From the UHGV virus genome UHGV-0035288: a stretch of DNA of 44,443 nucleotides; one strand, written 5' to 3'. The notes below the pieces were generated by a model. It was given only the letters and a program-made list of their open reading frames with translations, had not been told where the DNA came from and did no database searches. How positions within the stretch are numbered: position 1 is the stretch's first letter; each line of letters begins with the position of its first letter. Below, one piece after another: positions 735-44,035 of the stretch. A program made the position numbers and the translations under genes. This stretch comes from a virus.

Positions 735-1201
735 AATTACTGATTTGCGATTTGGATGGCGTTATTAACGGCTCAAGCGATGCGCGTGCCGACCTGGTGC
801 CTGGCATAAAAACTAAATCCACCTTTTGGGCGAAGTGGCACAAAGCGCATATACGCGAAGATCTGAACATGGATATGCTGCCGCTGCTGACCATGTACAA
901 AGAGCAAGGCTTCGAGATCGCGTATCTGACCAACCGGCAGCGAGAATGTTGGGACACCACCGCCGAGCAATTGGAGGTATTCCCGGTAGGCCGGTTGTTT
1001 ATGCGCCACATGCTGGACGACACCCCGCCACCTGAGTTTAAGGCGTGCGCCGTGTTCAAAATGGTGTGCTATGCCGACGTGTCGGAACTGGTCATCATTG
1101 AAGACTGTCCGAAGAACATCGCGGCAATTCGTCGGGCGTGCGGCGATCTGGTCCCGAAGATTTATGCGATAAACGTTGCAAAATTCACTTGCAACCAATA
1201 G
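731..1201 (+). CDS. HAD-superfamily hydrolase (phosphatase-like)
   Basis: AGGAG at 721-725 then ATG 731. N-terminal LICDLDGV matches HAD motif I (DxDG). Confidence 0.55.
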   Translation: MKLLICDLDGVINGSSDARADLVPGIKTKSTFWAKWHKAHIREDLNMDMLPLLTMYKEQGFEIAYLTNRQRECWDTTAEQLEVFPVGRLFMRHMLDDTPPPEFKACAVFKMVCYADVSELVIIEDCPKNIAAIRRACGDLVPKIYAINVAKFTCNQ

Positions 1202-1211
1202 GTTGGTTGCA
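1190..1211. promoter_or_regulatory. perfect inverted repeat TGCAACCAA-TAGG-TTGGTTGCA (paired copy of the recurrent TTGGTTGCA motif)
   Basis: Read directly at 1190-1198 and 1203-1211; overlaps stop codon of the HAD gene and precedes gene at 1266. Confidence 0.5.
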
Positions 1212-1265
1212 GTATCTTAACCACATCGGGAGGCAATACCGCCTCCCACTAAAACGGAAAACATC

Positions 1266-2401: not shown

Positions 2402-4123
2402 TTATTTCTTCAACGCCGCGATCTCGGACTTCAACTCCCCCACCTGCTTATTGAGATATTGAATACACCCCATCAAGTCCATCACGATCGGGTTAACGTC
2501 TACGGACGGTCGGTCTACCGTTTTCTCCCCGATCTTGTTGCCGTCTTCGTCGAGGATATCCTCGACGGGTACTTCGATGTGCTTGATGTATTGCGGCGCG
2601 ATTAACTCCGCTTCTTCGGCGATAATACCGAAGCGACGGCGTCCCTTCTCGTCATCCTTGTACACGAAGTTAACAAGACGCTGGCGGCTAATGCGGTCCA
2701 TGGCCTCGCTTGCGTCTGCCTCGGCAATATCTTTCTTATACTCGCGACCCGACGTACCTTGCAGCGCGAGAATTCCGCCGCTGGTTGGGAATGTTACAAT
2801 GATTTGCCCCGTGTTGCTTCCATCCCCGCGTCGCCTAATAAGGTTGACCGTAGATATGACCCCATCTTCCCCCGATACTTCCATTATTGTCCTTGCGCCA
2901 ACCTGCGTATCCGGCGTGGCATACCTATTCGATTTAAAGGTTACGCCAGGGTATCCCTGGTTCTGGATAGTAATAACCCCGTCGGAGTCAATTGGACCCA
3001 AAGAACGCAGGTTTTTCGCCGAGAAAGTGCCCAGGTCATTAAAATCATAAACGGCGGTGCGGTCGGTTGTTCGGTTGTACACACTCAGGCGCGCGTAGTA
3101 TTCAGCCCCGATCGCCGCTCTGATACGCCAGGCCATGTTCGCTTCTTGAATCCCATTAACGTTGTAACGAGAATAGATCCCCCCGCCGTCAATGGTAGTG
3201 CCGACTGAGGGTTGGGTGGCGTCTTCTTTTATTACCGTCCAGCTATTAGTCGCAGTGCCCGCGTCTAGTAAGGACAGCGCCCAGCGCTTAGTCGCGGCAT
3301 CCAGATCCGCAATGGGGTCCGATCCGACTCGAAGCGGGCCGGGAGGCATAAGGTTCCCCCACGACGCCGTTTTATCAGCAAGCCCAGCAAGGTTGCCGGA
3401 TTTGGTTAGCAGGTTATCCACGTTAACGCTTTGCGCCCACTCCTCGGCCTGATCGCGGAATCCCTGAGCGGCAGTGCTGGCAGCTTGCGCGTCCATCTTC
3501 GCAGTGTTGGCCTCATCCCTCATAACGCTGGTGTCAGCCTTGATCTGGTTCGTCTGGTCTTTGATGGCCTGCGTATCAGTCTTAATCTGGTTGGTCTGCG
3601 TCTTGATGGTATTGGTGTCGTTTTTGAAGCCTTCGGCCTCATTGCGAAATCCTTGCGCTGCTGCTTCCGATGCGGCGGCTTGTTGTTGCAGGTTGCGCAT
3701 CTCAACCGGGTCTACGTTCTTAAGCAATTCCGACAGGTAGCCCCATGACATACCCTGCATGACTTGCCCGTTCGGTAGCGTTACCGTGATTTCTTCAGCG
3801 TCTCCGAAGATTGCACGCCAGTTGTTTTCATCTGCGATCATCAAGCGCAACGCTTTCTGTGCCTGTACGGTAACGCCCATAGTTGCCAGCGACATGGTAT
3901 CGCGCTTAACGCCATCCCACGCGAGGCCGGTTGCCGTTGGGCCGTCGAACGGAAGCACCAGCGTTAGCGCGGTTGCACTTTCAATGGACGCAATCGCTAC
4001 GGTGTAGGGTACTTGGCCCACCACCAGCGTTAAGAAGTCGCCAGCTTTAAACGCCGTAAACGTTGTTCCGACCCCGACAACCGCCTTGCTGTTATTCGTT
4101 ACGGATAGTGTACCCGCTGCCAT
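2402..4123 (-). CDS. tail fiber with C-terminal intramolecular chaperone (peptidase S74-like) domain
   Basis: Start moved to ATG at 4123 (GAGGA SD 7 nt upstream). N-terminus MAAGTLSVTNNSKAVVGVGTTF is a phage fiber anchor-type motif; central heptad-like repeats (QTNQIKTDTQAIKDQTNQIK); C-terminal block (...RLVNFVYKDDEKGRRRFGIIAEE...) resembles the self-cleaving chaperone of endosialidase-type fibers. Confidence 0.75.
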   Translation of the reverse strand: MAAGTLSVTNNSKAVVGVGTTFTAFKAGDFLTLVVGQVPYTVAIASIESATALTLVLPFDGPTATGLAWDGVKRDTMSLATMGVTVQAQKALRLMIADENNWRAIFGDAEEITVTLPNGQVMQGMSWGYLSELLKNVDPVEMRNLQQQAAASEAAAQGFRNEAEGFKNDTNTIKTQTNQIKTDTQAIKDQTNQIKADTSVMRDEANTAKMDAQAASTAAQGFRDQAEEWAQSVNVDNLLTKSGNLAGLADKTASWGNLMPPGPLRVGSDPIADLDAATKRWALSLLDAGTATNSWTVIKEDATQPSVGTTIDGGGIYSRYNVNGIQEANMAWRIRAAIGAEYYARLSVYNRTTDRTAVYDFNDLGTFSAKNLRSLGPIDSDGVITIQNQGYPGVTFKSNRYATPDTQVGARTIMEVSGEDGVISTVNLIRRRGDGSNTGQIIVTFPTSGGILALQGTSGREYKKDIAEADASEAMDRISRQRLVNFVYKDDEKGRRRFGIIAEEAELIAPQYIKHIEVPVEDILDEDGNKIGEKTVDRPSVDVNPIVMDLMGCIQYLNKQVGELKSEIAALKK

Positions 4124-4140
4124 AGCTGAATCCTCATAAA

Positions 4141-4169
4141 TTGGTTGCAATCCTGGTCGAGCGGTGCAA
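4141..4169 (+). promoter_or_regulatory. TTGGTTGCA motif plus degenerate second copy (CGGTGCAAT) upstream of lipoprotein moron
   Basis: TTGGTTGCA at 4141-4149, GGTGCAAT at 4162-4169, 35 nt upstream of ATG 4204. Confidence 0.4.
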
Positions 4170-4203
4170 TACTAAAACTCGACCAAATATAGGAGATGAT
4201 AAC

Positions 4204-9487: not shown

Positions 9488-10218
9488 TCTGTTATATTCC
9501 CCGGTAGGTCTTTATGACGTACCCATTTAACCACATTGTCCCGGAAAAATCCTGACCGGAAGGGTATCACGCTCGACAGACTGCCGTAGATGTGGTGTAG
9601 TAGTTGGTTGCCCGGAAGGAATATCCCAGCATGGTTAGGCACTGGCGCGCTGATCTGCATGATAACCATCGCCCCCGGCGTATTCTCCTCGCATTCCCTG
9701 AAGCCCGCGCCGTACCAGTTATCCATATACAGATTTTCGCCTGTCTCCCACCAGTTATACGGCACGCGGAAGTCTGGCAGGTTTACGCCCTGCTTTTTGT
9801 GCCATGCCATGACGAGGCCGTAACAGTCAGTAACCCCGAGAACAAATCGGCGGCCTACCAGCGGCGGGTCTTCCGGGTCGATCTCGATAAAGTCGCCATA
9901 TTCGTTAGTGATGGTCCAGACGACGCCACTGCCGTTGCATCCGTTAACGTCTCCCAGTGATGGGGTAAGCTCGCGCTGGCCAGGATGCGAGTGGACTACG
10001 CGCACGACGTCGCCCATATCCTCGGCATCCATCCAGGCCATATCACTAATAGTAAACGCGTCTTTGCGTGAGCGCACGCCGGTCGGGTCTTCGAATACGT
10101 TCTGACATGGTACGAATACTTGCTTGCGACCCACCATGACTACCAACCCACAGGCTTCTTCCGGCAGACATGCCGCAACGTGCGCGGCGATATCGCTTTT
10201 AACCTTTTTCGTTAACAT
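9478..10218 (-). CDS. tail assembly protein K-like (MPN/JAMM plus NlpC/P60-type domains)
   Basis: 246 aa; HSHPGQ (JAMM-like His motif) and Cys-containing C-terminal half; position in L-K-I order. Confidence 0.75.
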   Translation of the reverse strand: MLTKKVKSDIAAHVAACLPEEACGLVVMVGRKQVFVPCQNVFEDPTGVRSRKDAFTISDMAWMDAEDMGDVVRVVHSHPGQRELTPSLGDVNGCNGSGVVWTITNEYGDFIEIDPEDPPLVGRRFVLGVTDCYGLVMAWHKKQGVNLPDFRVPYNWWETGENLYMDNWYGAGFRECEENTPGAMVIMQISAPVPNHAGIFLPGNQLLHHIYGSLSSVIPFRSGFFRDNVVKWVRHKDLPGNITEWQ

Positions 10219-14284: not shown

Positions 14285-14349
14285 TATGCAGTCCCCCTTT
14301 TTATGCAGTTGCCGTCGGTCATTGTATCAGCGAATTTAAAACAAACCTT

Positions 14350-14664
14350 ATTCAGTCTCAGACGAGGGGGGCCATTGACCCCCGTCTAGTCTGAAAGACT
14401 GGGGTGCTGTCCCGCTGTCCCGATCGGCTAAAACCCGCGGCAGCACTGGAGGGGACGGGGTGCTGTCCCGATCTGTCCCGCCTCATTCTGTCCCGCTTTT
14501 TGTCCCGCTTACTTTATGCACTAAAACTGCATAGACATTCACATTTTGGGGGTGGGACAGATCGGGACAGCACCCCTGTCCCGCTTTTAATCTATGCAAT
14601 GTAAGTGGGTAAATATGCAGTTTTAGAGGTGCGGGACAAAACGGGACGTCCCGCCTGTCCCGCT
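14350..14664. repeat. iteron-rich element, copy 1 (hairpin plus at least 13 GTCCCG-core repeats in both orientations)
   Basis: TGTCCCG(C/A) at 14408, 14416, 14464, 14474, 14489, 14501, 14577, 14656; GTCCCGC at 14648; inverted GGGACA/CGGGACA at 14554, 14563, 14632, 14642. Conserved hairpin CAGTCTCAGACGAGGGGGG...CCCCCGTCTAGTCTGAAAGACTGG at 14353-14402. About 70% of this block is repeated at 31188-31366. Confidence 0.8.
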
Positions 14665-14667
14665 TCG

Positions 14668-20218: not shown

Positions 20219-20258
20219 CGCTTGCAATCCTTGTATTGGTTGCAATATATTGGTTGCA
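20219..20258 (+). promoter_or_regulatory. promoter region with two tandem TTGGTTGCA motifs upstream of moron
   Basis: TTGGTTGCA at 20236-20244 and 20250-20258; TTGCAA/TATATT hexamers; followed by CACCAACAACGAGGAC leader shared with region 30971-31000. Confidence 0.5.
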
Positions 20259-20280
20259 CACCAACAACGAGGACACAAAA

Positions 20281-21045
20281 ATGAGACTGACCAAAGGCAT
20301 TAAAAACCAGATTCTGGCTAACATTCTGCGCGACCACGAAATCGCTACCGAAGCCAAATCAATCATGACGGACTCGCGCGACCTGGCGTATGACATTACG
20401 TTGCACTGTATGCCGGTGGGCATTCATACGTTCGCCGAACTATTCGCACACATTGAAGCAATCAACGATGACCCGTCGCAGATGTACGGCGTCTGCGTAT
20501 ACACCAACAAGGCGACGTATAGTTATAACACCGACCGCCCCAAAGGTATTGGCAGCGTTTACGACGCCACTTTCGAAATCAACGCAGGCGGTAACGTTCG
20601 CACCTTGTCATTGAGCGGCGATGGGCACCGATACCGAGTACATCGCGGATACTGGGAGTATAAATACATGAATAAGCTATCTCCCGATCTCGGCGATATC
20701 GTACCGGGGTTCGAGGAAGTTATGTTGGCTTCGGTGTGTGAAGTGGACGAGGACGGAAAATCGCTTCCGATCTATAAGCCACGCTGCCGTGCTGATTTCC
20801 CGGCGGATCATGACTTCTGTAAGCGCTTGGACCGTAACGACCAGGCCCGCCGCGAATTGCGTGCGAAGTATGACGCATTCAAGTTGACCGTTACCGGTGT
20901 GCTTGACCTGCACAATACTGACAAGAAGCTGATTAAGGCATGGCCTGAAGTTGAGCAATTCATCCCTTACCCGGACAAGCCAAAATCCACGGCGGTGGCG
21001 CTGGATGTGAAAACTCTCAACGAGATTTGCGGTATTCCGCGCTAA
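20281..21045 (+). CDS. hypothetical protein encoded by a moron inside the structural module
   Basis: GAGGA SD then ATG 20281; 254 aa; opposite strand to all neighbours, own promoter motif and own terminator. Confidence 0.6.
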   Translation: MRLTKGIKNQILANILRDHEIATEAKSIMTDSRDLAYDITLHCMPVGIHTFAELFAHIEAINDDPSQMYGVCVYTNKATYSYNTDRPKGIGSVYDATFEINAGGNVRTLSLSGDGHRYRVHRGYWEYKYMNKLSPDLGDIVPGFEEVMLASVCEVDEDGKSLPIYKPRCRADFPADHDFCKRLDRNDQARRELRAKYDAFKLTVTGVLDLHNTDKKLIKAWPEVEQFIPYPDKPKSTAVALDVKTLNEICGIPR

Positions 21046-21079: not shown

Positions 21080-21290
21080 GCTGCAACTCCAGCACCTGCG
21101 CCCTTAGCTTCGCCCCGCATTCCATATTTTTCACGTCAATCATCAAATCCTCGTCGGGGTCTGCGGACGGGCTATCGAACTTGCACGGCGGTCGCAGTGC
21201 CGACTCCGTTAGCGGCATCAACGGCGCGTTGCTTGATCCGCACGCGCTCAGCATCAAAACTACAATCAGGGCGGTTAGGGCGCGTAACAT
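21060..21290 (-). CDS. Rz1: o-spanin (Rz1-like outer-membrane lipoprotein)
   Basis: ATG 21290 inside Rz-like gene in another frame; MLRALTALIVVLMLSACGSS signal with lipobox LSAC; Pro-rich mature part; 76 aa. Confidence 0.6.
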   Translation of the reverse strand: MLRALTALIVVLMLSACGSSNAPLMPLTESALRPPCKFDSPSADPDEDLMIDVKNMECGAKLRAQVLELQQIIKGP

Positions 21291-27518: not shown

Positions 27519-27579
27519 ATTAATCCACTTCCTGATTATGGGTCCGAGGACAATATACCACGGTCCCGAGTCAAGCAAT

Positions 27580-27603
27580 AAAAAGCCCGGAATTAACCGG
27601 GCT
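27580..27603 (-). terminator. rho-independent terminator
   Basis: GCCCGG-AATTAA-CCGGGC hairpin with T5 on minus strand; downstream of Ig-like gene. Confidence 0.65.
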
Positions 27604-27610
27604 TGTGGTT

Positions 27611-30368: not shown

Positions 30369-30634
30369 TTGCTCAGTCTCCAGTGTTTGCCTACCCGCTC
30401 AACGGCGGGCTTCCGGCGTAATGTAATACGAATGCCAATTGGTTGCAAGGACGTTTTTATGGCTAACCCATGCTCCCTGGCGAACTGGCGCAAGTAGCGG
30501 GTCTGCGTTAATGGCTTCACATCGTCGCGATAGCACCAGAACACAGAATCGCCCTCATTCGCATTCTTAGCCCATATTCGTATGCAATGCAGTGGGATGC
30601 TCCACGAAAGCTGTTTAGCTCGTCTACGGCCCAT
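30365..30634 (-). CDS. hypothetical protein
   Basis: 89 aa; AAGGGG SD then ATG 30634. Confidence 0.5.
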   Translation of the reverse strand: MGRRRAKQLSWSIPLHCIRIWAKNANEGDSVFWCYRDDVKPLTQTRYLRQFAREHGLAIKTSLQPIGIRITLRRKPAVERVGKHWRLSK

Positions 30635-30970: not shown

Positions 30971-30991
30971 CGTTCAGTCCTCATGTTGGTG

Positions 30992-31031
30992 TGCAACCAA
31001 TATAGCAGGGTGCTGGAGTGGGTGCAACCAA
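30992..31031 (-). promoter_or_regulatory. promoter region with two TTGGTTGCA motifs (minus orientation)
   Basis: TGCAACCAA on plus at 30992-31000 and 31023-31031; same leader (TTGGTTGCACACCAACA..GAGGAC) as upstream of 20281. Confidence 0.5.
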
Positions 31032-31182
31032 TATTAATCACGCGCATGAAAAAGTTGATCGCTATCTGCTGTAACTGCAAACTGCATTTTTCACCCACCA
31101 TTCTGCAACGCGCATTGGTTGCCTAGTTCATCGACGACCGCAATTCGCATCTTGTTGCCGTGCGTTATGCAATCCCGGATTT

Positions 31183-31370
31183 TATGCAGTCTCAGACGAG
31201 GGGGGTGCCAGACCCCCCGTCTAGTCTGAAAGACTGGGGTGCTGTCCCGCTGTCCCGCTCCTCGCCAGGCCGCGTCATCCGGGGCGGGACGGGGGTGCTG
31301 TCCCGCTTTGTCCCGCCCCTGGTCTGTCCCGCTTTTTGTCCCGCTTACTTTATGCAGTTTTATTGCATAA
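31183..31370. repeat. iteron-rich element, copy 2
   Basis: Same hairpin (31188-31237) and TGTCCCGC repeats (31243, 31251, 31299, 31309, 31325, 31337; inverted GCGGGAC at 31284) as 14353-14520; in 480-bp intergenic gap downstream of primase-helicase. Confidence 0.8.
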
Positions 31371-31450
31371 CTATGCATTATACTCACACTACACGGCAAC
31401 CAACACGACCGACTAAAAGCACGCAAAATGGCAACCAATGCGCGCAAAAT

Positions 31451-33715
31451 TTAATCTTTTAAATCGTCATCGGTCGCTAAAAGCGTGATAGGGATATCCG
31501 ATTTGATGACCAAATTAGACGACCCATAGATGGCCCCGGTGTGTGGATCGGTGTAAAAACCTATCACTCCTCGCTCCACCATATCGTCGATTGCCTTCGT
31601 CGAAGTGCCACCTTTTGCCAGCCCAGCCTGGCGGACAATTGCCGATTTACTGAATCCAGTATGGTCCGGGTTATCTTCCATCAGTTTTTCCAGTGCCGCA
31701 TAAAGCACTTTCTCTTTTTCGTTGCGCGGTCCGGCGGTGTTCTCTTCCTTAACCGCGGCCTTGCCTGCCGCCTTCGCCTGTTCAATAGCGAACGGTGCCA
31801 GGGCAACCGGTACGAGGTAGAGAGTCTCGTCGCGTGGCGTGGAGGCAATCGGCTTGACGTCCCAACCGGCAACCACGTCACCGAAGTCTGGCCCGGTGCT
31901 GGTGGACTGGTGCGCCTCGAACGCCTCAGATTTGCGGAGATCCACCTTCACCTTGCACTTGAGCAGGACGAAGCCGCGCGGCGCTTGCTTGATGCCGTTA
32001 CGTGACTTCTCATGATACAGGTTCAATTGTCCGGGCTGGTTGTCGTCCGGCTGTTCCAGGAAGAACGCAGAATCGACAGCACCATGCAGCGCGCCGGACC
32101 CGCGTGGCGTTCTGCTGCCGTTTGCACCTTTAGCCGGGTGGTGGATGACGCCCGCACTGCCACCTGTATTTTCCGCGATGGCCTTCAGCGCTTTGACCAC
32201 TTCACCCATATCGCTGGCGTTGTTCTCGTCGAACGGTTTAGCCTCGGCGGACCGCAACGCAACAGTCTGGTTGAGTGAGTCGAACGCCACCAGGCCAACC
32301 GGTTCGCCATTAGCGGTGCGGTTGATAAAGCTGATAACTTCGCGCAAGCCCGATTTGCTGGTGATATCCCAGCCGCGTGACTGCAGATCGATAATGTGCA
32401 GCTTGTCCAGGTCGTGCTCATATTTAATCTGCAATGCTTCTTTACGCTGGTTGGAGGCTTCGCCACCTTCCGCGTCGAAATAGAAGCAATGAGACTGGAC
32501 GACCTTCGCACCGCCAAACGGAATACCCGCGGCAACCGCGCCCATCTGGCCCAGCACGTAGAAAGACTTACCGATATTCGACTCACCCGCCATGTACCAG
32601 GTCGATTTAAAGTTAATCAACCCCTCGATAATCGGGTCGTGCTTACTGAACAGCGCAACCGGCTCGTTATCCAGATCCGCATCGGTGCACCCGCCATATT
32701 CTTCGCCGTCGCCAACCGCATCAACAATATGTTCATATAAGGATTCGACTTCCTCGTCGTCCAGCCCCGGAAGGATGGCGGCGATTTGCTTACGGGACAT
32801 ATTGTGTGGCTCGACGTTCAGGTGGTCCGGTATCCCGATGAGACGTAGCGCCAGGTGCTGGTGTCTATTTAGCTCCGAGCAACACTCGTTGCCGGTGTGC
32901 ATACACTTGAAACGGATCTCGCCATCCTTAACCATGATAGCCGTCGACCCTTCGCCGCTGTGCAGATGTTCGTTCGGGCACGGCACTTCATAGCCCCGCC
33001 CGGAAGATAACTCCTCGAATCCTGCCTGGAAGCACCAGTCCAGAATGCCGTCTGCCACTGCGTCGTCGCCCTGGGTCAGTTCGCGGCGAACTTCCTCCTT
33101 CTCCACGCCCAACTTATCCGCCAGGCGGAGCAGACGACGGACGCGGGCGCGCTTGCCATAGTGGCACTTAATAACAGACTGCTGGTGTGGCAGGTACATC
33201 AGGCGGTTCGTGTCTTTCGTGCAATCGTCGAAGTCCACATCTGACAGACCCAGTTGGTGTAATAGTGCATACTGGACGCGGCCCAGGTCTTCTGCCGGTA
33301 CAGGCTTGTCCGTGAGCACCAGGAAACGGGCGCAACGCGTGCCGCCTTTCAGCGGGTGGCGGTCGCCGGTTGTGGTGTGAAAGACGTGCTCCAGTCCCGC
33401 GTCGATGAACGCCTTACGGCAGCGGCGTAGGGTGCGGGTGTCGGTACGGTCTATATCGAAGAACAGGATCGAGCGGTCCACCGCACTGGTCTTACGACGC
33501 AATCCGTCACTGGTATATGCCACGATGCCGTCGGCCTTACGCTTGCGGCGCGCATACTCGGCTTTATCTTCCGTTTTGTTGATATGCACCGAGGAGATTT
33601 CTTTCGCATCATTGATAAATTCGAAAAACTCTTCGGTAGTCATCTGGAAGTTTTCCGCCCTGGCTTTTTCGCCTTTTTTAGCGGGTCTTGTTACAGCGAA
33701 TTTAATTAAGCTCAT
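31451..33715 (-). CDS. DNA primase-helicase (N-terminal primase-polymerase-like domain, C-terminal P-loop helicase)
   Basis: 754 aa; Walker A-like GESNIGKS in C-terminal half, acidic and Cys/His-containing N-terminal half; ATG 33715. Confidence 0.75.
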   Translation of the reverse strand: MSLIKFAVTRPAKKGEKARAENFQMTTEEFFEFINDAKEISSVHINKTEDKAEYARRKRKADGIVAYTSDGLRRKTSAVDRSILFFDIDRTDTRTLRRCRKAFIDAGLEHVFHTTTGDRHPLKGGTRCARFLVLTDKPVPAEDLGRVQYALLHQLGLSDVDFDDCTKDTNRLMYLPHQQSVIKCHYGKRARVRRLLRLADKLGVEKEEVRRELTQGDDAVADGILDWCFQAGFEELSSGRGYEVPCPNEHLHSGEGSTAIMVKDGEIRFKCMHTGNECCSELNRHQHLALRLIGIPDHLNVEPHNMSRKQIAAILPGLDDEEVESLYEHIVDAVGDGEEYGGCTDADLDNEPVALFSKHDPIIEGLINFKSTWYMAGESNIGKSFYVLGQMGAVAAGIPFGGAKVVQSHCFYFDAEGGEASNQRKEALQIKYEHDLDKLHIIDLQSRGWDITSKSGLREVISFINRTANGEPVGLVAFDSLNQTVALRSAEAKPFDENNASDMGEVVKALKAIAENTGGSAGVIHHPAKGANGSRTPRGSGALHGAVDSAFFLEQPDDNQPGQLNLYHEKSRNGIKQAPRGFVLLKCKVKVDLRKSEAFEAHQSTSTGPDFGDVVAGWDVKPIASTPRDETLYLVPVALAPFAIEQAKAAGKAAVKEENTAGPRNEKEKVLYAALEKLMEDNPDHTGFSKSAIVRQAGLAKGGTSTKAIDDMVERGVIGFYTDPHTGAIYGSSNLVIKSDIPITLLATDDDLKD

Positions 33716-33725
33716 TGCCGTGGCC

Positions 33726-34055
33726 TTACTTAGAAGTTTTATTATTGCGTACCCAGGAGCGCACTGTGCTCTGATTAATTCCGGTCAACTCGGCAATCAT
33801 CGCCCAGGATTTGCCCTCGGCGCGCAAACGGATAACCTGCTTTTTGTATTCTTCCATTTCTTCATTGTGCTTTTGCAGCTTGCTGGCTGCCGTACCGTTG
33901 AGCAATTCCAGCCTGGCGCGTAATTCTTTTTCTACACTGCGCAGGCGCTCTACCTCAAATAGCACCGCCCCAACGGCATCGGTATAAGCCCATGACCGGC
34001 TTGTTTCACTGCTAACAGTCTTCGTTAACATTTCGATTGCGTCGTCGATATTCAT
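33726..34055 (-). CDS. HTH DNA-binding regulator
   Basis: 109 aa; C-terminal helix-turn-helix (SWAMIAELTGINQSTVRSWV); GAGGG SD; first gene of leftward transcription from divergent control region. Confidence 0.55.
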   Translation of the reverse strand: MNIDDAIEMLTKTVSSETSRSWAYTDAVGAVLFEVERLRSVEKELRARLELLNGTAASKLQKHNEEMEEYKKQVIRLRAEGKSWAMIAELTGINQSTVRSWVRNNKTSK

Positions 34056-34185
34056 TGCTCTGCCCTCAGTTGGTTAATGACCAACGAAACTACACCTAAA
34101 ACCGCAAGGTGTCAAATCCTTTGGATATTGAAACGGGCGCGCACGCGTGTAATAATAATTCCCGTCTCATTGTCTCTTATTGGTT

Positions 34186-34220
34186 AGCGCCGTTGCATTT
34201 TGCCTCGGCGCTTTTTTTTT
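34186..34220 (+). terminator. orphan rho-independent terminator in the divergent control region
   Basis: AGCGCCG-13 nt loop-CGGCGCT followed by T9 (34212-34220); no coding gene precedes it on the plus strand within 3 kb. Confidence 0.5.
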
Positions 34221-34231
34221 GAAATTAGTTG

Positions 34232-34260
34232 TTGACTCCCTTCTGCAACCAATCTAATAT
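34232..34260 (+). promoter_or_regulatory. strong sigma70-like early promoter (TTGACT-17-TAATAT)
   Basis: -35 TTGACT 34232-34237, 17-bp spacer containing GCAACCAAT, -10 TAATAT 34255-34260. Confidence 0.6.
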
Positions 34261-36893: not shown

Positions 36894-37128
36894 AGTATTC
36901 GCAATCTTATTGATGTTTTTGCTCGGCGCGCTGGGCTTTATCCTGCATTGCGTGCAAGGCGTGTTAATGGTGGCGTGGATGATTCGCCATCCGACCCGCT
37001 GGCTGGATGACGGCTATAGCGAAGTTGCCGTCGATTGGGTGGAAAAGAACATCGAACGCCCGCCGCTAAGCTGGATCGAGAACGCTACCAACTACGTGAC
37101 CAGAAATCTTTTTAATGAAAATGCTTGA
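36886..37128 (+). CDS. small membrane protein
   Basis: 80 aa; GAGGA SD; hydrophobic N-terminus (VFAILLMFLLGALGFIL). Confidence 0.4.
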   Translation: MNKVFAILLMFLLGALGFILHCVQGVLMVAWMIRHPTRWLDDGYSEVAVDWVEKNIERPPLSWIENATNYVTRNLFNENA

Positions 37129-37153
37129 CCGCTTAGGCGCAACCAAGTAGATT
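37125..37153 (+). promoter_or_regulatory. sigma70-like promoter (TTGACC-17-TAGATT) with GCAACCAAG motifs
   Basis: -35 at 37125-37130, -10 at 37148-37153; GCAACCAAG at 37137-37147 and 37154-37163. Confidence 0.5.
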
Positions 37154-37218
37154 AGCAACCAAGCCGAACGGGGTGGCTTCCAATAACCCCGATACATGTG
37201 AAAATGAGGAATTGGAAA

Positions 37219-37998
37219 ATGGCTAAAGTCAACCTGAAAAATGTGCGTGTATGTTTCCTTAAAATTTGGGAACGTGATACCCCTAAACAGGATGGACAAA
37301 AACCGGCATACCGCGCCGTGATTCTTCTTGATAAAGAAGATCCGCAGGTGGACAAAGTGGAAGCGGCAGCGCGCGCAGTGCTCACCGACAAGCTGAAATC
37401 CGAGAAGAATGCCGATAAGTGGATGGACCGCCACTACGCCCAGGATTCTAAGGAATGCGCAGTCCGCGACGGTGACGAGCGCGACGAAGTAACCGAAGAA
37501 TTCGAAGGCATGTTGTACATCAACGCTAAATCGTTCAAACAGCCGAACATCCAAACGTCACTGGGCGAGAAGCAGACCGAGCAAGGTCTGACCGTAGAAG
37601 GCGACGAGATCGAAGGCCAGGAAATCTATTCCGGTTGTTATTGCAACGTGTCACTGGATATTTGGGCGTGGAACAACACCAACGGTAAGGGACTCGGTGC
37701 TGGTCTTTTGGGTCTGCGATTCCGCGTCGACGGCGAAGCCTTCGGCGGTGGCGGGTCTTCTTGCTCGGACGAGGACCTGGGCGACGATGACGAAGATGAA
37801 AGCCCGCGCAAGTCCAAAAAGTCAAAACGTCGTGATGACGATGATGAAGACGACAAGCCGCGCAAGTCCAAAAAGTCCAAGCGCCGCGATGACGACGACG
37901 ATGATGAAACACCTCGCAAACGTCGTAAGCCACGCGATGACGAAGATGAGGACGACGACGACGAAGACAAAGCACCGCGTAAACGTCGCCGCCGTTAA
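37219..37998 (+). CDS. single-stranded DNA-binding protein (DUF2815-like) with Lys/Arg-Asp/Glu repeat tail
   Basis: Track start is GTG 37198; ATG 37219 has GAGGA SD. N-terminus MAKVNLKNVRV typical of this SSB family; C-terminal 90 aa are alternating basic/acidic repeats (PRKSKKSKRRDDDDEDD x2, ending KRRRR). Confidence 0.6.
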   Translation: MAKVNLKNVRVCFLKIWERDTPKQDGQKPAYRAVILLDKEDPQVDKVEAAARAVLTDKLKSEKNADKWMDRHYAQDSKECAVRDGDERDEVTEEFEGMLYINAKSFKQPNIQTSLGEKQTEQGLTVEGDEIEGQEIYSGCYCNVSLDIWAWNNTNGKGLGAGLLGLRFRVDGEAFGGGGSSCSDEDLGDDDEDESPRKSKKSKRRDDDDEDDKPRKSKKSKRRDDDDDDETPRKRRKPRDDEDEDDDDEDKAPRKRRRR

Positions 37999-40515: not shown

Positions 40516-40793
40516 TGACACCAGAAGGCAAGATTCAAAGTCACCTGATGCGACGGGTGAAAGAGGTAGGCGGATTCTGCCGCAAAATGGCATGGGAGGG
40601 GCGCGCGGGTGCGCCCGATCTGATTATCATCATCAACGGCAAAATAGTGTTCGTCGAAGTGAAGCGCCCGGGCGGAAAACCGAAGCCACACCAGGTACGC
40701 GAGCATGAGCGGATGGCCCGCCGCGGTGCGGACGTTCGCGTCATAGACAACATCGCCTACTGTGATTTATTGGTTGCTGAATTGGTCGCATAG
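40515..40793 (+). CDS. VRR-NUC domain nuclease
   Basis: ATG 40515 overlaps polymerase stop (TAATG), AGGA SD; 92 aa; PD-(D/E)XK core PDLIIIINGKIVFVEVKRPGGKP...QVREHERM. Confidence 0.65.
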   Translation: MTPEGKIQSHLMRRVKEVGGFCRKMAWEGRAGAPDLIIIINGKIVFVEVKRPGGKPKPHQVREHERMARRGADVRVIDNIAYCDLLVAELVA

Positions 40794-40802
40794 CGGTATA
40801 GT
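40774..40802 (+). promoter_or_regulatory. sigma70-like promoter (TTGCTG-17-TATAGT) overlapping TTGGTTGC motifs
   Basis: TTGGTTGC 40770-40777 and TTGGTCGCA 40782-40790; inside the 3' end of the VRR-NUC gene. Confidence 0.45.
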
Positions 40803-40833: not shown

Positions 40834-41007
40834 ATGATTGAAGAAAAACGTTGCAGTAATTGCGGCTGCGTTAAACCGCTATCCCAGTTCCACAAATACA
40901 CCGGTAAGACTGCACGCAGCCCGGACGGGTATCGTGCCGAGTGCAAATCATGCCGCAATAAAAAAGAGCGCGAACGGCAGCGCCGCTACCGCGCAGAGCA
41001 AAAATAA
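40834..41007 (+). CDS. small Cys-rich zinc-ribbon-like protein (57 aa)
   Basis: GAGGA SD then ATG 40834; CSNCGC...ECKSC then basic tail KKERERQRRYRAEQK; own promoter and terminator; below ORF-track cutoff. Confidence 0.45.
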   Translation: MIEEKRCSNCGCVKPLSQFHKYTGKTARSPDGYRAECKSCRNKKERERQRRYRAEQK

Positions 41008-43710: not shown

Positions 43711-43715
43711 ATTGG

Positions 43716-43744
43716 TTGCATAATCATATTGGTTGCATTATATT
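43716..43744 (+). promoter_or_regulatory. sigma70-like promoter (TTGCAT-17-TATATT) built from two tandem ATTGGTTGCA motifs
   Basis: Motifs at 43712-43720 and 43729-43737; -35 at 43716-43721, -10 at 43739-43744. Confidence 0.55.
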
Positions 43745-43746
43745 GA

Positions 43747-43773
43747 GGGTGTCCGGTTGGGACGCCCTTTTTT
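43747..43773 (+). terminator. terminator-like hairpin immediately downstream of promoter
   Basis: GGGTGTCC-GGTT-GGACGCCC stem (one G-T wobble) followed by T6 (43768-43773). Confidence 0.5.
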
Positions 43774-43792
43774 AATACCTGGAGACAACACG

Positions 43793-44035
43793 ATGAGATC
43801 ATTATTTTTCGACTACGACGGCGACCTTCGATTTTGGGTGATACTCACCCTCATGTTTGCCGTTTGTATTTTCGTACCTACCGCGGCTATTTACTACTCG
43901 GAACGCTACGAATGCCGGACTGTGTACGCAGAGCAAACAGGTCGTAACACCCAATGGCGCTATGGTGTCTGCTGGGTTGAGATGGACGGCAAATTTATTC
44001 CTCGCGATGAGATTCGCACAACGGAGATTAAATAA
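43793..44035 (+). CDS. small membrane protein
   Basis: Track start 43733 precedes the promoter/terminator; ATG 43793 has GGAGA SD. 80 aa; hydrophobic helix FWVILTLMFAVCIFVPTAAIYY. Confidence 0.45.
   Translation: MRSLFFDYDGDLRFWVILTLMFAVCIFVPTAAIYYSERYECRTVYAEQTGRNTQWRYGVCWVEMDGKFIPRDEIRTTEIK

Follow-up and report, generated by a model that had tools for sequence, protein, structure and literature searches.

A recurrent 10-bp element in the core promoters of a Dhillonvirus genome and a candidate phage regulator that may bind it

The 44,443-nucleotide viral genome UHGV-0035288 (the window, meaning the whole stretch analyzed here) contains a short asymmetric element, ATTGGTTGCA, of which nearly all phage σ70-type promoters appear to contain one or two copies within their core (-40 to +11). 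We posit, with roughly even confidence and on the strength of sequence and conservation, that this 10-mer is the operator half-site of a phage-encoded DNA-binding regulator, most probably the helix-turn-helix (HTH) protein encoded at 33726-34055, which would use it for repression and autoregulation. The recurrence, positions and conservation of the element are observed directly; binding by a protein, the identification of the HTH protein as the binder, and the direction of control are what we infer from them.

The window is an essentially complete Dhillonvirus genome, that of an HK578/SO-1-like Escherichia coli siphophage, with about 150 related records and 97.6% identity to SECphi4 in the head region. 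Its gene layout, obtained by mapping SECphi4 proteins onto the window, comprises a rightward (+) early/replication unit that runs from ~34277 to the window end and wraps around to 2375, and a leftward (-) unit that contains the HTH gene (33726-34055), the primase-helicase gene (31451-33715), small genes, and then the lysis, terminase, head and tail genes, ending at 2402. Two + strand genes lie within the leftward unit: cor (ATG 4213) and a gene with an Nmad5 domain (20281-21045). No relatives were found in bacterial genomes as prophages. Because no RNA polymerase or σ factor is annotated in six related records or recovered by family scans of the window proteins (Pfam and PHROGs, 38 proteins, namely the nonstructural set and an Ig-like [Big_2] protein), host RNA polymerase presumably transcribes the phage promoters.

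A recurrent element concentrated in noncoding DNA

The sequence-only reading that preceded this work had noticed a 9-10-mer recurring between genes, and this recurrence is real: the 9-mer TTGGTTGCA has 11 exact matches on the two strands (1190-, 1203+, 4141+, 20236+, 20250+, 30439+, 30992-, 31023-, 34244-, 43712+ and 43729+), compared with 0.33 +/- 0.59 expected from 100 dinucleotide shuffles. The 10-mer ATTGGTTGCA with at most one mismatch is found 16 times (3.3 expected), and the 8-mer TTGGTTGC occurs exactly at 18 places. The proposed intergenic preference also survives comparison with coding DNA. Noncoding sequence makes up 7.2% of the window and holds 14 of the 18 TTGGTTGC copies (binomial P = 2e-13) and 9 of the 11 TTGGTTGCA copies (binomial P = 2e-9), and three of the four nominally coding 8-mers (1190, 40770), or their partner (40782), fall within the final codons of a gene, just ahead of the following gene. 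The commonest noncoding k-mer in the window is ATTGGTTGC(A), tied with GCGGGACA.

The further sites that had been listed at 31116, 31396, 31431, 37137/37154 and 40770/40782 stand as one-mismatch variants of the 9-mer (TTGGTTGCC three times, TTGGTTGCG, TTGGTTGCT twice, and TTGGTCGCA), and two intragenic copies, at 30439+ inside gp51 and at 9604+, can be added to them. Paired copies lie 12, 13, 14, 16, 17, 31 or 35 bp apart, start to start, and the pair at 1190/1203 is, as described, a perfect inverted repeat. The leader TATATTGGTTGCACACCAACA..GAGGAC..ATG that two sites were said to share is present at 20246-20284 and at 31004-30968(-), and it is unchanged through ...ACCAACA in seven genomes.

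Copies hold preferred positions in σ70-type promoters

With the -10 hexamer taken as -12..-7, ten promoters can be delineated around the copies (Table 1), each having a -35-like hexamer separated by a 16-18 bp spacer from its -10 hexamer, as in σ70-type promoters; three of the ten are also recovered by a consensus promoter scan, and one is annotated in the HK578 record. The well-placed copies all overlap such a core promoter. They lie at -40..-31 (four copies), -35..-26, -34..-25, -28..-19, -23..-14 (five copies), -9..+1 (two copies), -6..+4 and +2..+11, and between promoters the second copy in a pair moves by as much as 5 bp. Forward copies at -40..-31 (43711, 31032-31023, 40769 and 4140, and likewise at 3171 in L127 and 6953 in L128, two metagenomic relatives) supply TTGCAn as the -35 hexamer with a 17-18 bp spacer. 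The forward copies at -9..+1 (20249 and 31001-30992) read TATATTGGTTGCA, and both extend into the palindrome TTGGTtgcacACCAA. We treat TTGGTtgcacACCAA as a DNA palindrome and set aside an RNA hairpin, since the predicted start lies inside the element and the transcript would lack the 5' arm. The copies at 34244 and 37138/37154 are reversed relative to their own promoters, an orientation that had gone unnoticed before.

Alignments of the promoters at 1189, 30984, 31377, 34232, 37125, 40769 and 43711 show that T1, A2 and T6 of the -10 hexamers beside the copies are fixed (TAATAT/TATCAT/TATTAT, TAGATT/TAAATT/TACATT and TATATT/TATCTT/TAGATT); the promoters are probably functional, because variation is confined to positions 3-5. 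Both positions and conservation thus agree with the earlier suggestion of an operator or promoter-specificity element placed over the -35 hexamer or in the spacer of σ70-like promoters. We favor a protein operator over a plain polymerase element: copies in either orientation, at varied positions and with a shifting second member are what an occluding binder would produce, unlike a polymerase contact.

The element outlasts its surroundings

Motif sites recur in SECphi4, HK578, 'rolling', SO-1, CHD5UKE2 and Gluttony. When eleven regions are aligned across seven Dhillonvirus genomes, the 10-mers are invariant, whereas flanks and spacers change freely: the 17-18 nt between the -40..-31 copy and the -10 hexamer of P_gp50 are rewritten between genomes, and the 7 nt between the -35 hexamer and the spacer copy upstream of 20281 also vary. 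The site thus behaves as an operator would, being recurrent, more conserved than its flanks, independent of orientation and overlapping the polymerase footprint.

More distant relatives extend this pattern. L127 and L128, found through homologues of the HTH protein, have primase-helicase genes 68.8% and 69.8% identical to that of the window, and their intergenic DNA cannot be aligned with it, yet the 10-mer persists at corresponding spots: in the promoters for early rightward transcription, for the HTH gene, for the next gene cluster and ahead of the phosphoesterase/terminase genes, as well as in the region that follows the primase-helicase gene. In the syntenic Guernseyvirinae phage SP-031, the 12 kb examined contain no ATTGGTTGCA. 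When IMG/VR was scanned for motif pairs, most of the hits inspected outside Dhillonvirus proved to be tandem repeats within coding sequence of unrelated viruses, with periods of 9-54 bp. One contig of 56% GC, L010 (IMG/VR 3300038463_000167), has seven ATTGGTTGCA copies in ~360 bp (2795-3160), several at 20-bp intervals (cccgcctaATTGGTTGCAtcc...); the contig is not similar to the window, and the array looks like an iteron or operator array of another element.

A candidate binding protein

Two window proteins had been named as possible binders. For the HTH protein at 33726-34055 this is a reasonable proposal on sequence grounds, since it is the sole recognizable sequence-specific regulator, has a site at its own promoter and shares its distribution with the motif; the scan of 38 window proteins recognized no other sequence-specific DNA-binding domain. 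The zinc-ribbon protein at 40834-41007 (gp35) is implausible in this role, as it matches the Lar-like restriction-alleviation and endonuclease VII zinc-ribbon families of PHROGs, and we rejected it as the operator binder.

The HTH protein has Pfam matches to HTH_23, Sigma70_r4_2 and HTH_28. Its AlphaFold model (mean predicted local distance difference test score 88.7) has a 59-residue helix (residues 21-79) leading into a C-terminal helix-turn-helix whose 35 residues superpose on the HTHs of SdiA, GerE, LiaR and NarL at ~1 Å, and we class it as a LuxR/GerE/σ70-region-4-like HTH; the Foldseek E-values are weak, as only ~35 residues align. A sequence search of the PDB returned only a designed repeat protein and coiled-coil proteins. 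Because the middle region scores like a coiled coil, the sequence suggests a dimer with two flexibly held HTHs. The N-terminal half has been swapped outright between lineages, giving a 109-residue type in the window and a 142-149-residue type (type 2) in HK578 and CHD5UKE2, and the HTH segment is invariant or nearly so across lineages with unrelated N-terminal halves, in parallel with the invariant motif. In the protein database and IMG/VR the family is confined to Dhillonvirus-like phages, and no homologue was found in bacterial genomes of 185,579 species. In SP-031 the slot upstream of the primase-helicase gene is filled by an unrelated XRE-type regulator.

A model for regulation and its alternatives

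As the regulator accumulates after infection, it would occupy the sites and compete with polymerase or reshape its binding. At P_R (34232), P_ssb (37125) and the promoter of the HTH gene itself, where the site lies in the spacer or around +1, occupancy would repress, bringing about early shutoff and autoregulation; at promoters in which the motif doubles as the -35 hexamer (TTGCAn), the regulator would repress or hold polymerase. From the distribution of copies we read the regulator as acting on essentially all phage promoters. We favor a regulator site because the ATTGG half of the motif, which has no role for σ70, is conserved like the TTGCA half.

Several observations weigh against this model. 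A pure repressor acting at every promoter, including that at the head of the lysis/structural unit, fails to explain late expression; as a speculation, the 18-22 sites on each replicating genome could titrate the regulator and so permit it. A dimeric HTH protein would not usually be expected to use direct repeats of variable spacing. The link between protein and site is one of co-occurrence, with no co-variation of helix and site seen: the type-2 recognition helix reads INRSTIRQW in place of INQSTVRSW while the motif is unchanged, and the type-2 phages HK578 and CHD5UKE2 lack a site at the HTH promoter. Motif sites seem dispensable at some promoters, since the window's own late-region promoter (27519-27610) lacks the reversed pair found there in most relatives. 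Finally, the strict 18-nt distance from forward copy to -10 hexamer, together with the link between orientation and -35 quality, fits an activator equally well.

Such an activator or specificity element, which we consider unlikely on balance, would have a factor bound to the -40..-31 copy replace or assist σ70 region 4 at promoters with weak -35 hexamers, much as T4 MotA does at its box or lambda CII at TTGC-N6-TTGC, switching polymerase from consensus early promoters to TTGCAn promoters while reversed copies simultaneously repress, as with phi29 p4. The spacing is exactly 18 nt in all four window promoters of this kind and in the two of L127 and L128; their -35 hexamers are weak (TTGCAT/C/A, TTGCTG) beside good -10 hexamers, the reversed-copy promoters all have near-consensus ones (TTGACT, TTGACC), so that orientation tracks -35 quality, and the HTH domain scores as Sigma70_r4_2. 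TTGCAn at 17 bp is, however, already a usable σ70 -35 hexamer that requires no factor, the spacer and -9..+1 copies in the same promoters are badly placed for activation, and the family scans found no AsiA- or MotA-like protein. By analogy with phi29 p4, a dual role would reconcile the evidence for repression with that for activation. In a bolder and distinctly improbable version, the coiled-coil HTH protein alone would run the whole program, with the forward copy making it a stand-in for σ70 region 4, the reversed copy shutting early promoters, and the ATTGGTTGCC copies beside the GCGGGACA repeats coupling the switch to replication; the -35 replacement would then be a form independent of MotA/AsiA.

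The element might instead need no dedicated factor, the copies belonging to a promoter cassette for host σ70 polymerase that was spread by duplication or recombination and kept as promoter and recombination linker. TTGCA is indeed the -35 in many copies, and all genomes have an identical promoter upstream of 20281, which is followed by a different gene in HK578 and CHD5UKE2 and therefore marks a cassette-exchange point. We nevertheless regard this explanation as very unlikely, given that the ATTGG half is as invariant as TTGCA, that spacer, +1 and reversed copies are not promoter elements, that the copy at 31114 has no promoter, and that in L127 and L128 the 10-mer alone survives, the rest of the supposed cassette having diverged. 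A host transcription factor, either of the GntR type (PdhR/LldR-like, with ATTGGT half-sites) or CytR (GTTGCA repeats), is brought to mind by the resemblance of the motif to the PdhR half-site ATTGGT and to GTTGCA, the core of the CytR octamer, and would accommodate an unchanged motif where the N-terminal half of the phage HTH protein is swapped. It seems highly improbable to us: the window contains no PdhR-type palindrome TTGGT-N3-ACCAA, its existing palindromes having N5; a scan with ATTGGT-N3-ACCAAT gave one match at 1 mismatch, not above chance; the two bases after GTTGCA that a CytR octamer needs are variable; and the syntenic region of SP-031 lacks the motif though its host, Salmonella, is related. 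Least probable of all, and barely credible, are replication iterons, binding sites through which the primase-helicase, or the HTH protein as its partner, would define or activate an origin. Five copies flank the 480-bp noncoding region past the primase-helicase gene (30971-31450), a repeat region in the SO-1 record, these flanking copies form a distinct ATTGGTTGCC subclass, and the HTH and primase-helicase genes adjoin; most copies, though, are scattered genome-wide over at least ten promoters, and the true tandem repeat of that region is GCGGGACA, whose twin array at 14285-14667 has no ATTGGTTGCA-like copy at up to 2 mismatches. A σ54 promoter (TGGCAC-N5-TTGCA, with GG and GC 12 bp apart) was also rejected, as GG and GC are 4 bp apart within a copy and 16-21 bp or more apart between pairs.

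Relation to known phage systems

The repressor sites or "stoperators" of mycobacteriophage L5 gp71 are reportedly 13 bp long and asymmetric, and are said to occur in many copies in short noncoding stretches, where a small HTH protein binds them. The Dhillonvirus element is alike in being short (10 bp) and asymmetric and in having many copies that lie mostly in short noncoding stretches, some over promoters. L5, however, is temperate, and its sites serve lysogenic silencing, lying mostly downstream of promoters in one orientation and blocking elongation, whereas the sites here are inside core promoters and in both orientations, and no lysogeny genes appear in the annotated records (no integrase or immunity genes in six annotated related genomes); we therefore rejected an L5-type stoperator. 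T4 middle promoters have a MotA box centered at about -30, 11-13 bp from the -10 hexamer, and are used through MotA/AsiA σ appropriation. They offer a parallel in that a phage-specific asymmetric element of 9-10 bp replaces the consensus -35 hexamer upstream of a good -10 hexamer in a virulent coliphage that uses host polymerase. Unlike the MotA box, the element here ends 18 nt from the -10 hexamer, its TTGCAn aligns as an ordinary -35 hexamer, and extra copies lie in the spacer, at +1 or reversed. Only the copy at 31404-31395 is at 12 nt, and a MotA box was rejected on this account and on the lack of MotA/AsiA matches among the scanned proteins. Because the element does not keep a single orientation, does not belong to a temperate life style and is not found at -30 together with MotA/AsiA, motif and candidate regulator fall outside both the L5 and the MotA families, and therefore form a new regulator-site pair of a familiar kind.

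Functional analogies can be drawn to phi29 p4 and lambda CII (TTGC-N6-TTGC at -35), small phage proteins that bind in or next to core promoters. The Dhillonvirus regulator would be like them in repressing strong early promoters and helping promoters with a weak -35 hexamer, and differs from them in site architecture and protein fold. Closer by descent, Drexlerviridae being the sister group of Dhillonvirus, is the T1-like phage TLS, which has 21 copies of the direct repeat aaATAGCACnnnTTGnTAAAA and few recognizable consensus σ70 promoters (PMC11447400). Its repeats differ in sequence and length, being single oriented 21-mers upstream of genes as opposed to 10-mers at defined positions relative to -35 and -10.

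No published description of the motif was found in GenBank feature tables or in the literature that could be searched: a literature search with the sequence string returned only primers, and the Dhillonvirus genome papers found make no mention of promoters, repeats or a regulatory motif. A loosely framed search of the transcriptome literature found no 5'-end data for any Dhillonvirus. These phages are among the most frequently isolated coliphages and include BASEL phages Bas14-18 as well as SECphi4 and SECphi18, which figure in studies of antiphage defense; their GenBank records annotate at most three consensus promoters. The motif in effect maps about a dozen promoters, and it offers a regulator-operator pair that can be put to the test as well as a simple handle for engineering, be it tuning or silencing of phage genes or construction of reporter phages. 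It also bears on the wider question of how virulent siphophages of small size schedule their early and late transcription with host polymerase alone. T1-like phages likewise have unexplained promoter-associated repeats (PMC11447400).

Individual promoters and neighboring elements

Table 1. Promoters, motif copies and the candidate regulator in the window (positions relative to the predicted start; -10 hexamer at -12..-7)
Feature	Coordinates	Strand	Layout
Promoter of gene 43793-44035	43711..43744	+	Forward ATTGGTTGCA 43711-43720 at -40..-31; TTGCAT as -35
Same promoter, second forward copy	43728-43737	+	-23..-14; 17-bp spacer; -10 TATATT 43739-43744
Promoter of Nmad5 gene (20281-21045)	20222..20266	+	-35 TTGCAA 20222-20227, within degenerate copy ATTCGCTTGCA
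Nmad5 promoter, spacer copy	20235-20244	+	Forward, -23..-14; -10 TATATT 20246-20251
Nmad5 promoter, start copy	20249-20258	+	Forward, -9..+1; forms palindrome TTGGTtgcacACCAA (20250-20264)
Promoter of gp50 (first gene of long leftward unit)	30984..31032	-	Forward copy 31032-31023 at -40..-31; -35 TTGCAC
gp50 promoter, -10	31004-30999	-	TATATT; 17-bp spacer, highly variable between genomes
gp50 promoter, start copy	31001-30992	-	Forward, -9..+1; palindrome and leader same as at 20249
Promoter of gp35 (40834-41007), inside 3' end of gp36	40769..40802	+	ATTGGTTGCT 40769-40778 at -40..-31
gp35 promoter, second copy	40781-40790	+	ATTGGTCGCA at -28..-19; -10 TATAGT 40797-40802
Promoter of cor (superinfection-exclusion gene, ATG 4213)	4140..4173	+	Forward copy 4140-4149 at -40..-31 of AATACT 4168-4173
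Promoter of gene 1266-1757	1189..1218	+	Reversed TGCAACCAAT 1190-1199 supplies -35 TTGCAA (1189-1194)
Same promoter, forward copy	1202-1211	+	GTTGGTTGCA at -23..-14; -10 TATCTT 1213-1218
P_R, main early rightward promoter	34232..34260	+	TTGACT 34232-34237; 17-bp spacer; TAATAT 34255-34260
P_R, copy	34244-34253	+ (promoter)	Reversed TGCAACCAAT at -23..-14
P_ssb, promoter of Gp2.5-like SSB gene (37219-37998)	37125..37163	+	TTGACC 37125-37130; 17-bp spacer; TAGATT 37148-37153
P_ssb, copies, both reversed	37138-37147, 37154-37163	+ (promoter)	CGCAACCAAG at -22..-13; AGCAACCAAG at -6..+4
Promoter of HTH gene	34069..34115	-	TTGACA 34115-34110; 17-bp spacer; TAGTTT 34092-34087
HTH promoter, palindrome	34084-34070	-	TTGGTcattaACCAA at -4..+11, then ribosome-binding site and ATG 34055
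Promoter-like site facing GCGGGACA repeat region	31377..31439	-	ATTGGTTGCC 31439-31430; GTTGGTTGCC 31404-31395 (-34..-25); TATAAT 31382-31377
Isolated copy, far side of GCGGGACA region	31114..31123	+	ATTGGTTGCC; invariant in 7 genomes
Possible internal promoter in gp51	30420..30448	-	TTGCAA 30448-30443 from reversed copy 30447-30438; 17-bp spacer; TACATT 30425-30420
HTH protein	33726..34055	-	109 residues; first gene of early leftward unit, immediately upstream of primase-helicase

Among the promoters in Table 1, that at 43711..43744 keeps both copies in 7 genomes, with variable sequence in the 7 nt between them and a -10 hexamer that changes only at position 4 (TATATT/TATCTT). An intrinsic terminator hairpin at 43745-43769 (+) begins directly after this -10 hexamer, making a compact terminator-promoter module in which read-through transcription would end and the promoter's own transcripts would lack the 5' stem arm. 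At 1189..1218 the -10 hexamer is TATAGT in other genomes, and in phage Gluttony the central 4 bp of the inverted repeat are flipped, as expected for a palindromic site. The stretch orthologous to P_R is annotated as a σ70 promoter in the HK578 GenBank record, and in L127 and L128 the P_R spacer is filled by two overlapping reversed copies; the HTH promoter of these two relatives has a full reversed copy (TGCAACCAAT / TGCAACCAAG) at about +2..+11. The cor promoter has an alternative -10 hexamer, TAAATT at 4135-4140, which overlaps the start of the copy. A stem GGTCGAG...CTCGACC at 4155-4190 (+) spans the presumed -10 hexamer. Among genomes one of its pairs changes from C:G to T:A in compensatory fashion, and Gluttony has the T:G intermediate, which suggests an RNA hairpin on the + strand and possibly, to judge by the sequence, a different cor start site.

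The remaining copies are less readily placed. No convincing promoter surrounds the copy at 31114, and neither it nor that at 31430 lies in a recognizable promoter. The site inside gp51 is conserved, but its coding location gives this conservation little weight. Before the phosphoesterase/terminase genes, the stretch at 27519-27610 (-) is a minority allele (of 129 matching records, only 20 have at least 80% coverage of a 501-bp query around it), which keeps TTGACT and lacks the reversed copy pair and the CATACT -10 hexamer; both are present at the equivalent place in SECphi4, HK578, 'rolling', SO-1, CHD5UKE2 and L128. The gene at 20281-21045 (+), oriented opposite to the head module in which it lies, encodes nucleotide modification associated domain 5 (Nmad5).

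Other repeats lie near the motif sites. The 480-bp gap after the primase-helicase gene contains at least seven copies of GCGGGACA and GC-rich palindromes at 31245-31340 (-), and a similar GCGGGACA array lies at 14285-14667 (-), between the tail chaperone genes and the tape-measure gene; they are repeat regions B and A of the SO-1 record. By analogy, the two arrays look like a two-part origin, reminiscent of P4 ori/crr and distinct from the ATTGGTTGCA motif. In SP-031 the equivalent place is occupied by GGGGGAGA repeats. In the early divergent region, a near-consensus promoter with a TG extension (TTGAAA-17-AATAAT, 34128-34156, +) is followed after ~30 nt by a hairpin and T9 terminator (34187-34220); the unit at 34128-34220, which contains ATTGGTTAGC (34179) and the conserved CTCATTGTCT, could be a small RNA of ~55 nt. 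A third recurrent noncoding word, AAGGGGCC, has seven of its nine copies in noncoding DNA and seems to form the stem common to several intrinsic terminators (e.g., 21150-21175).

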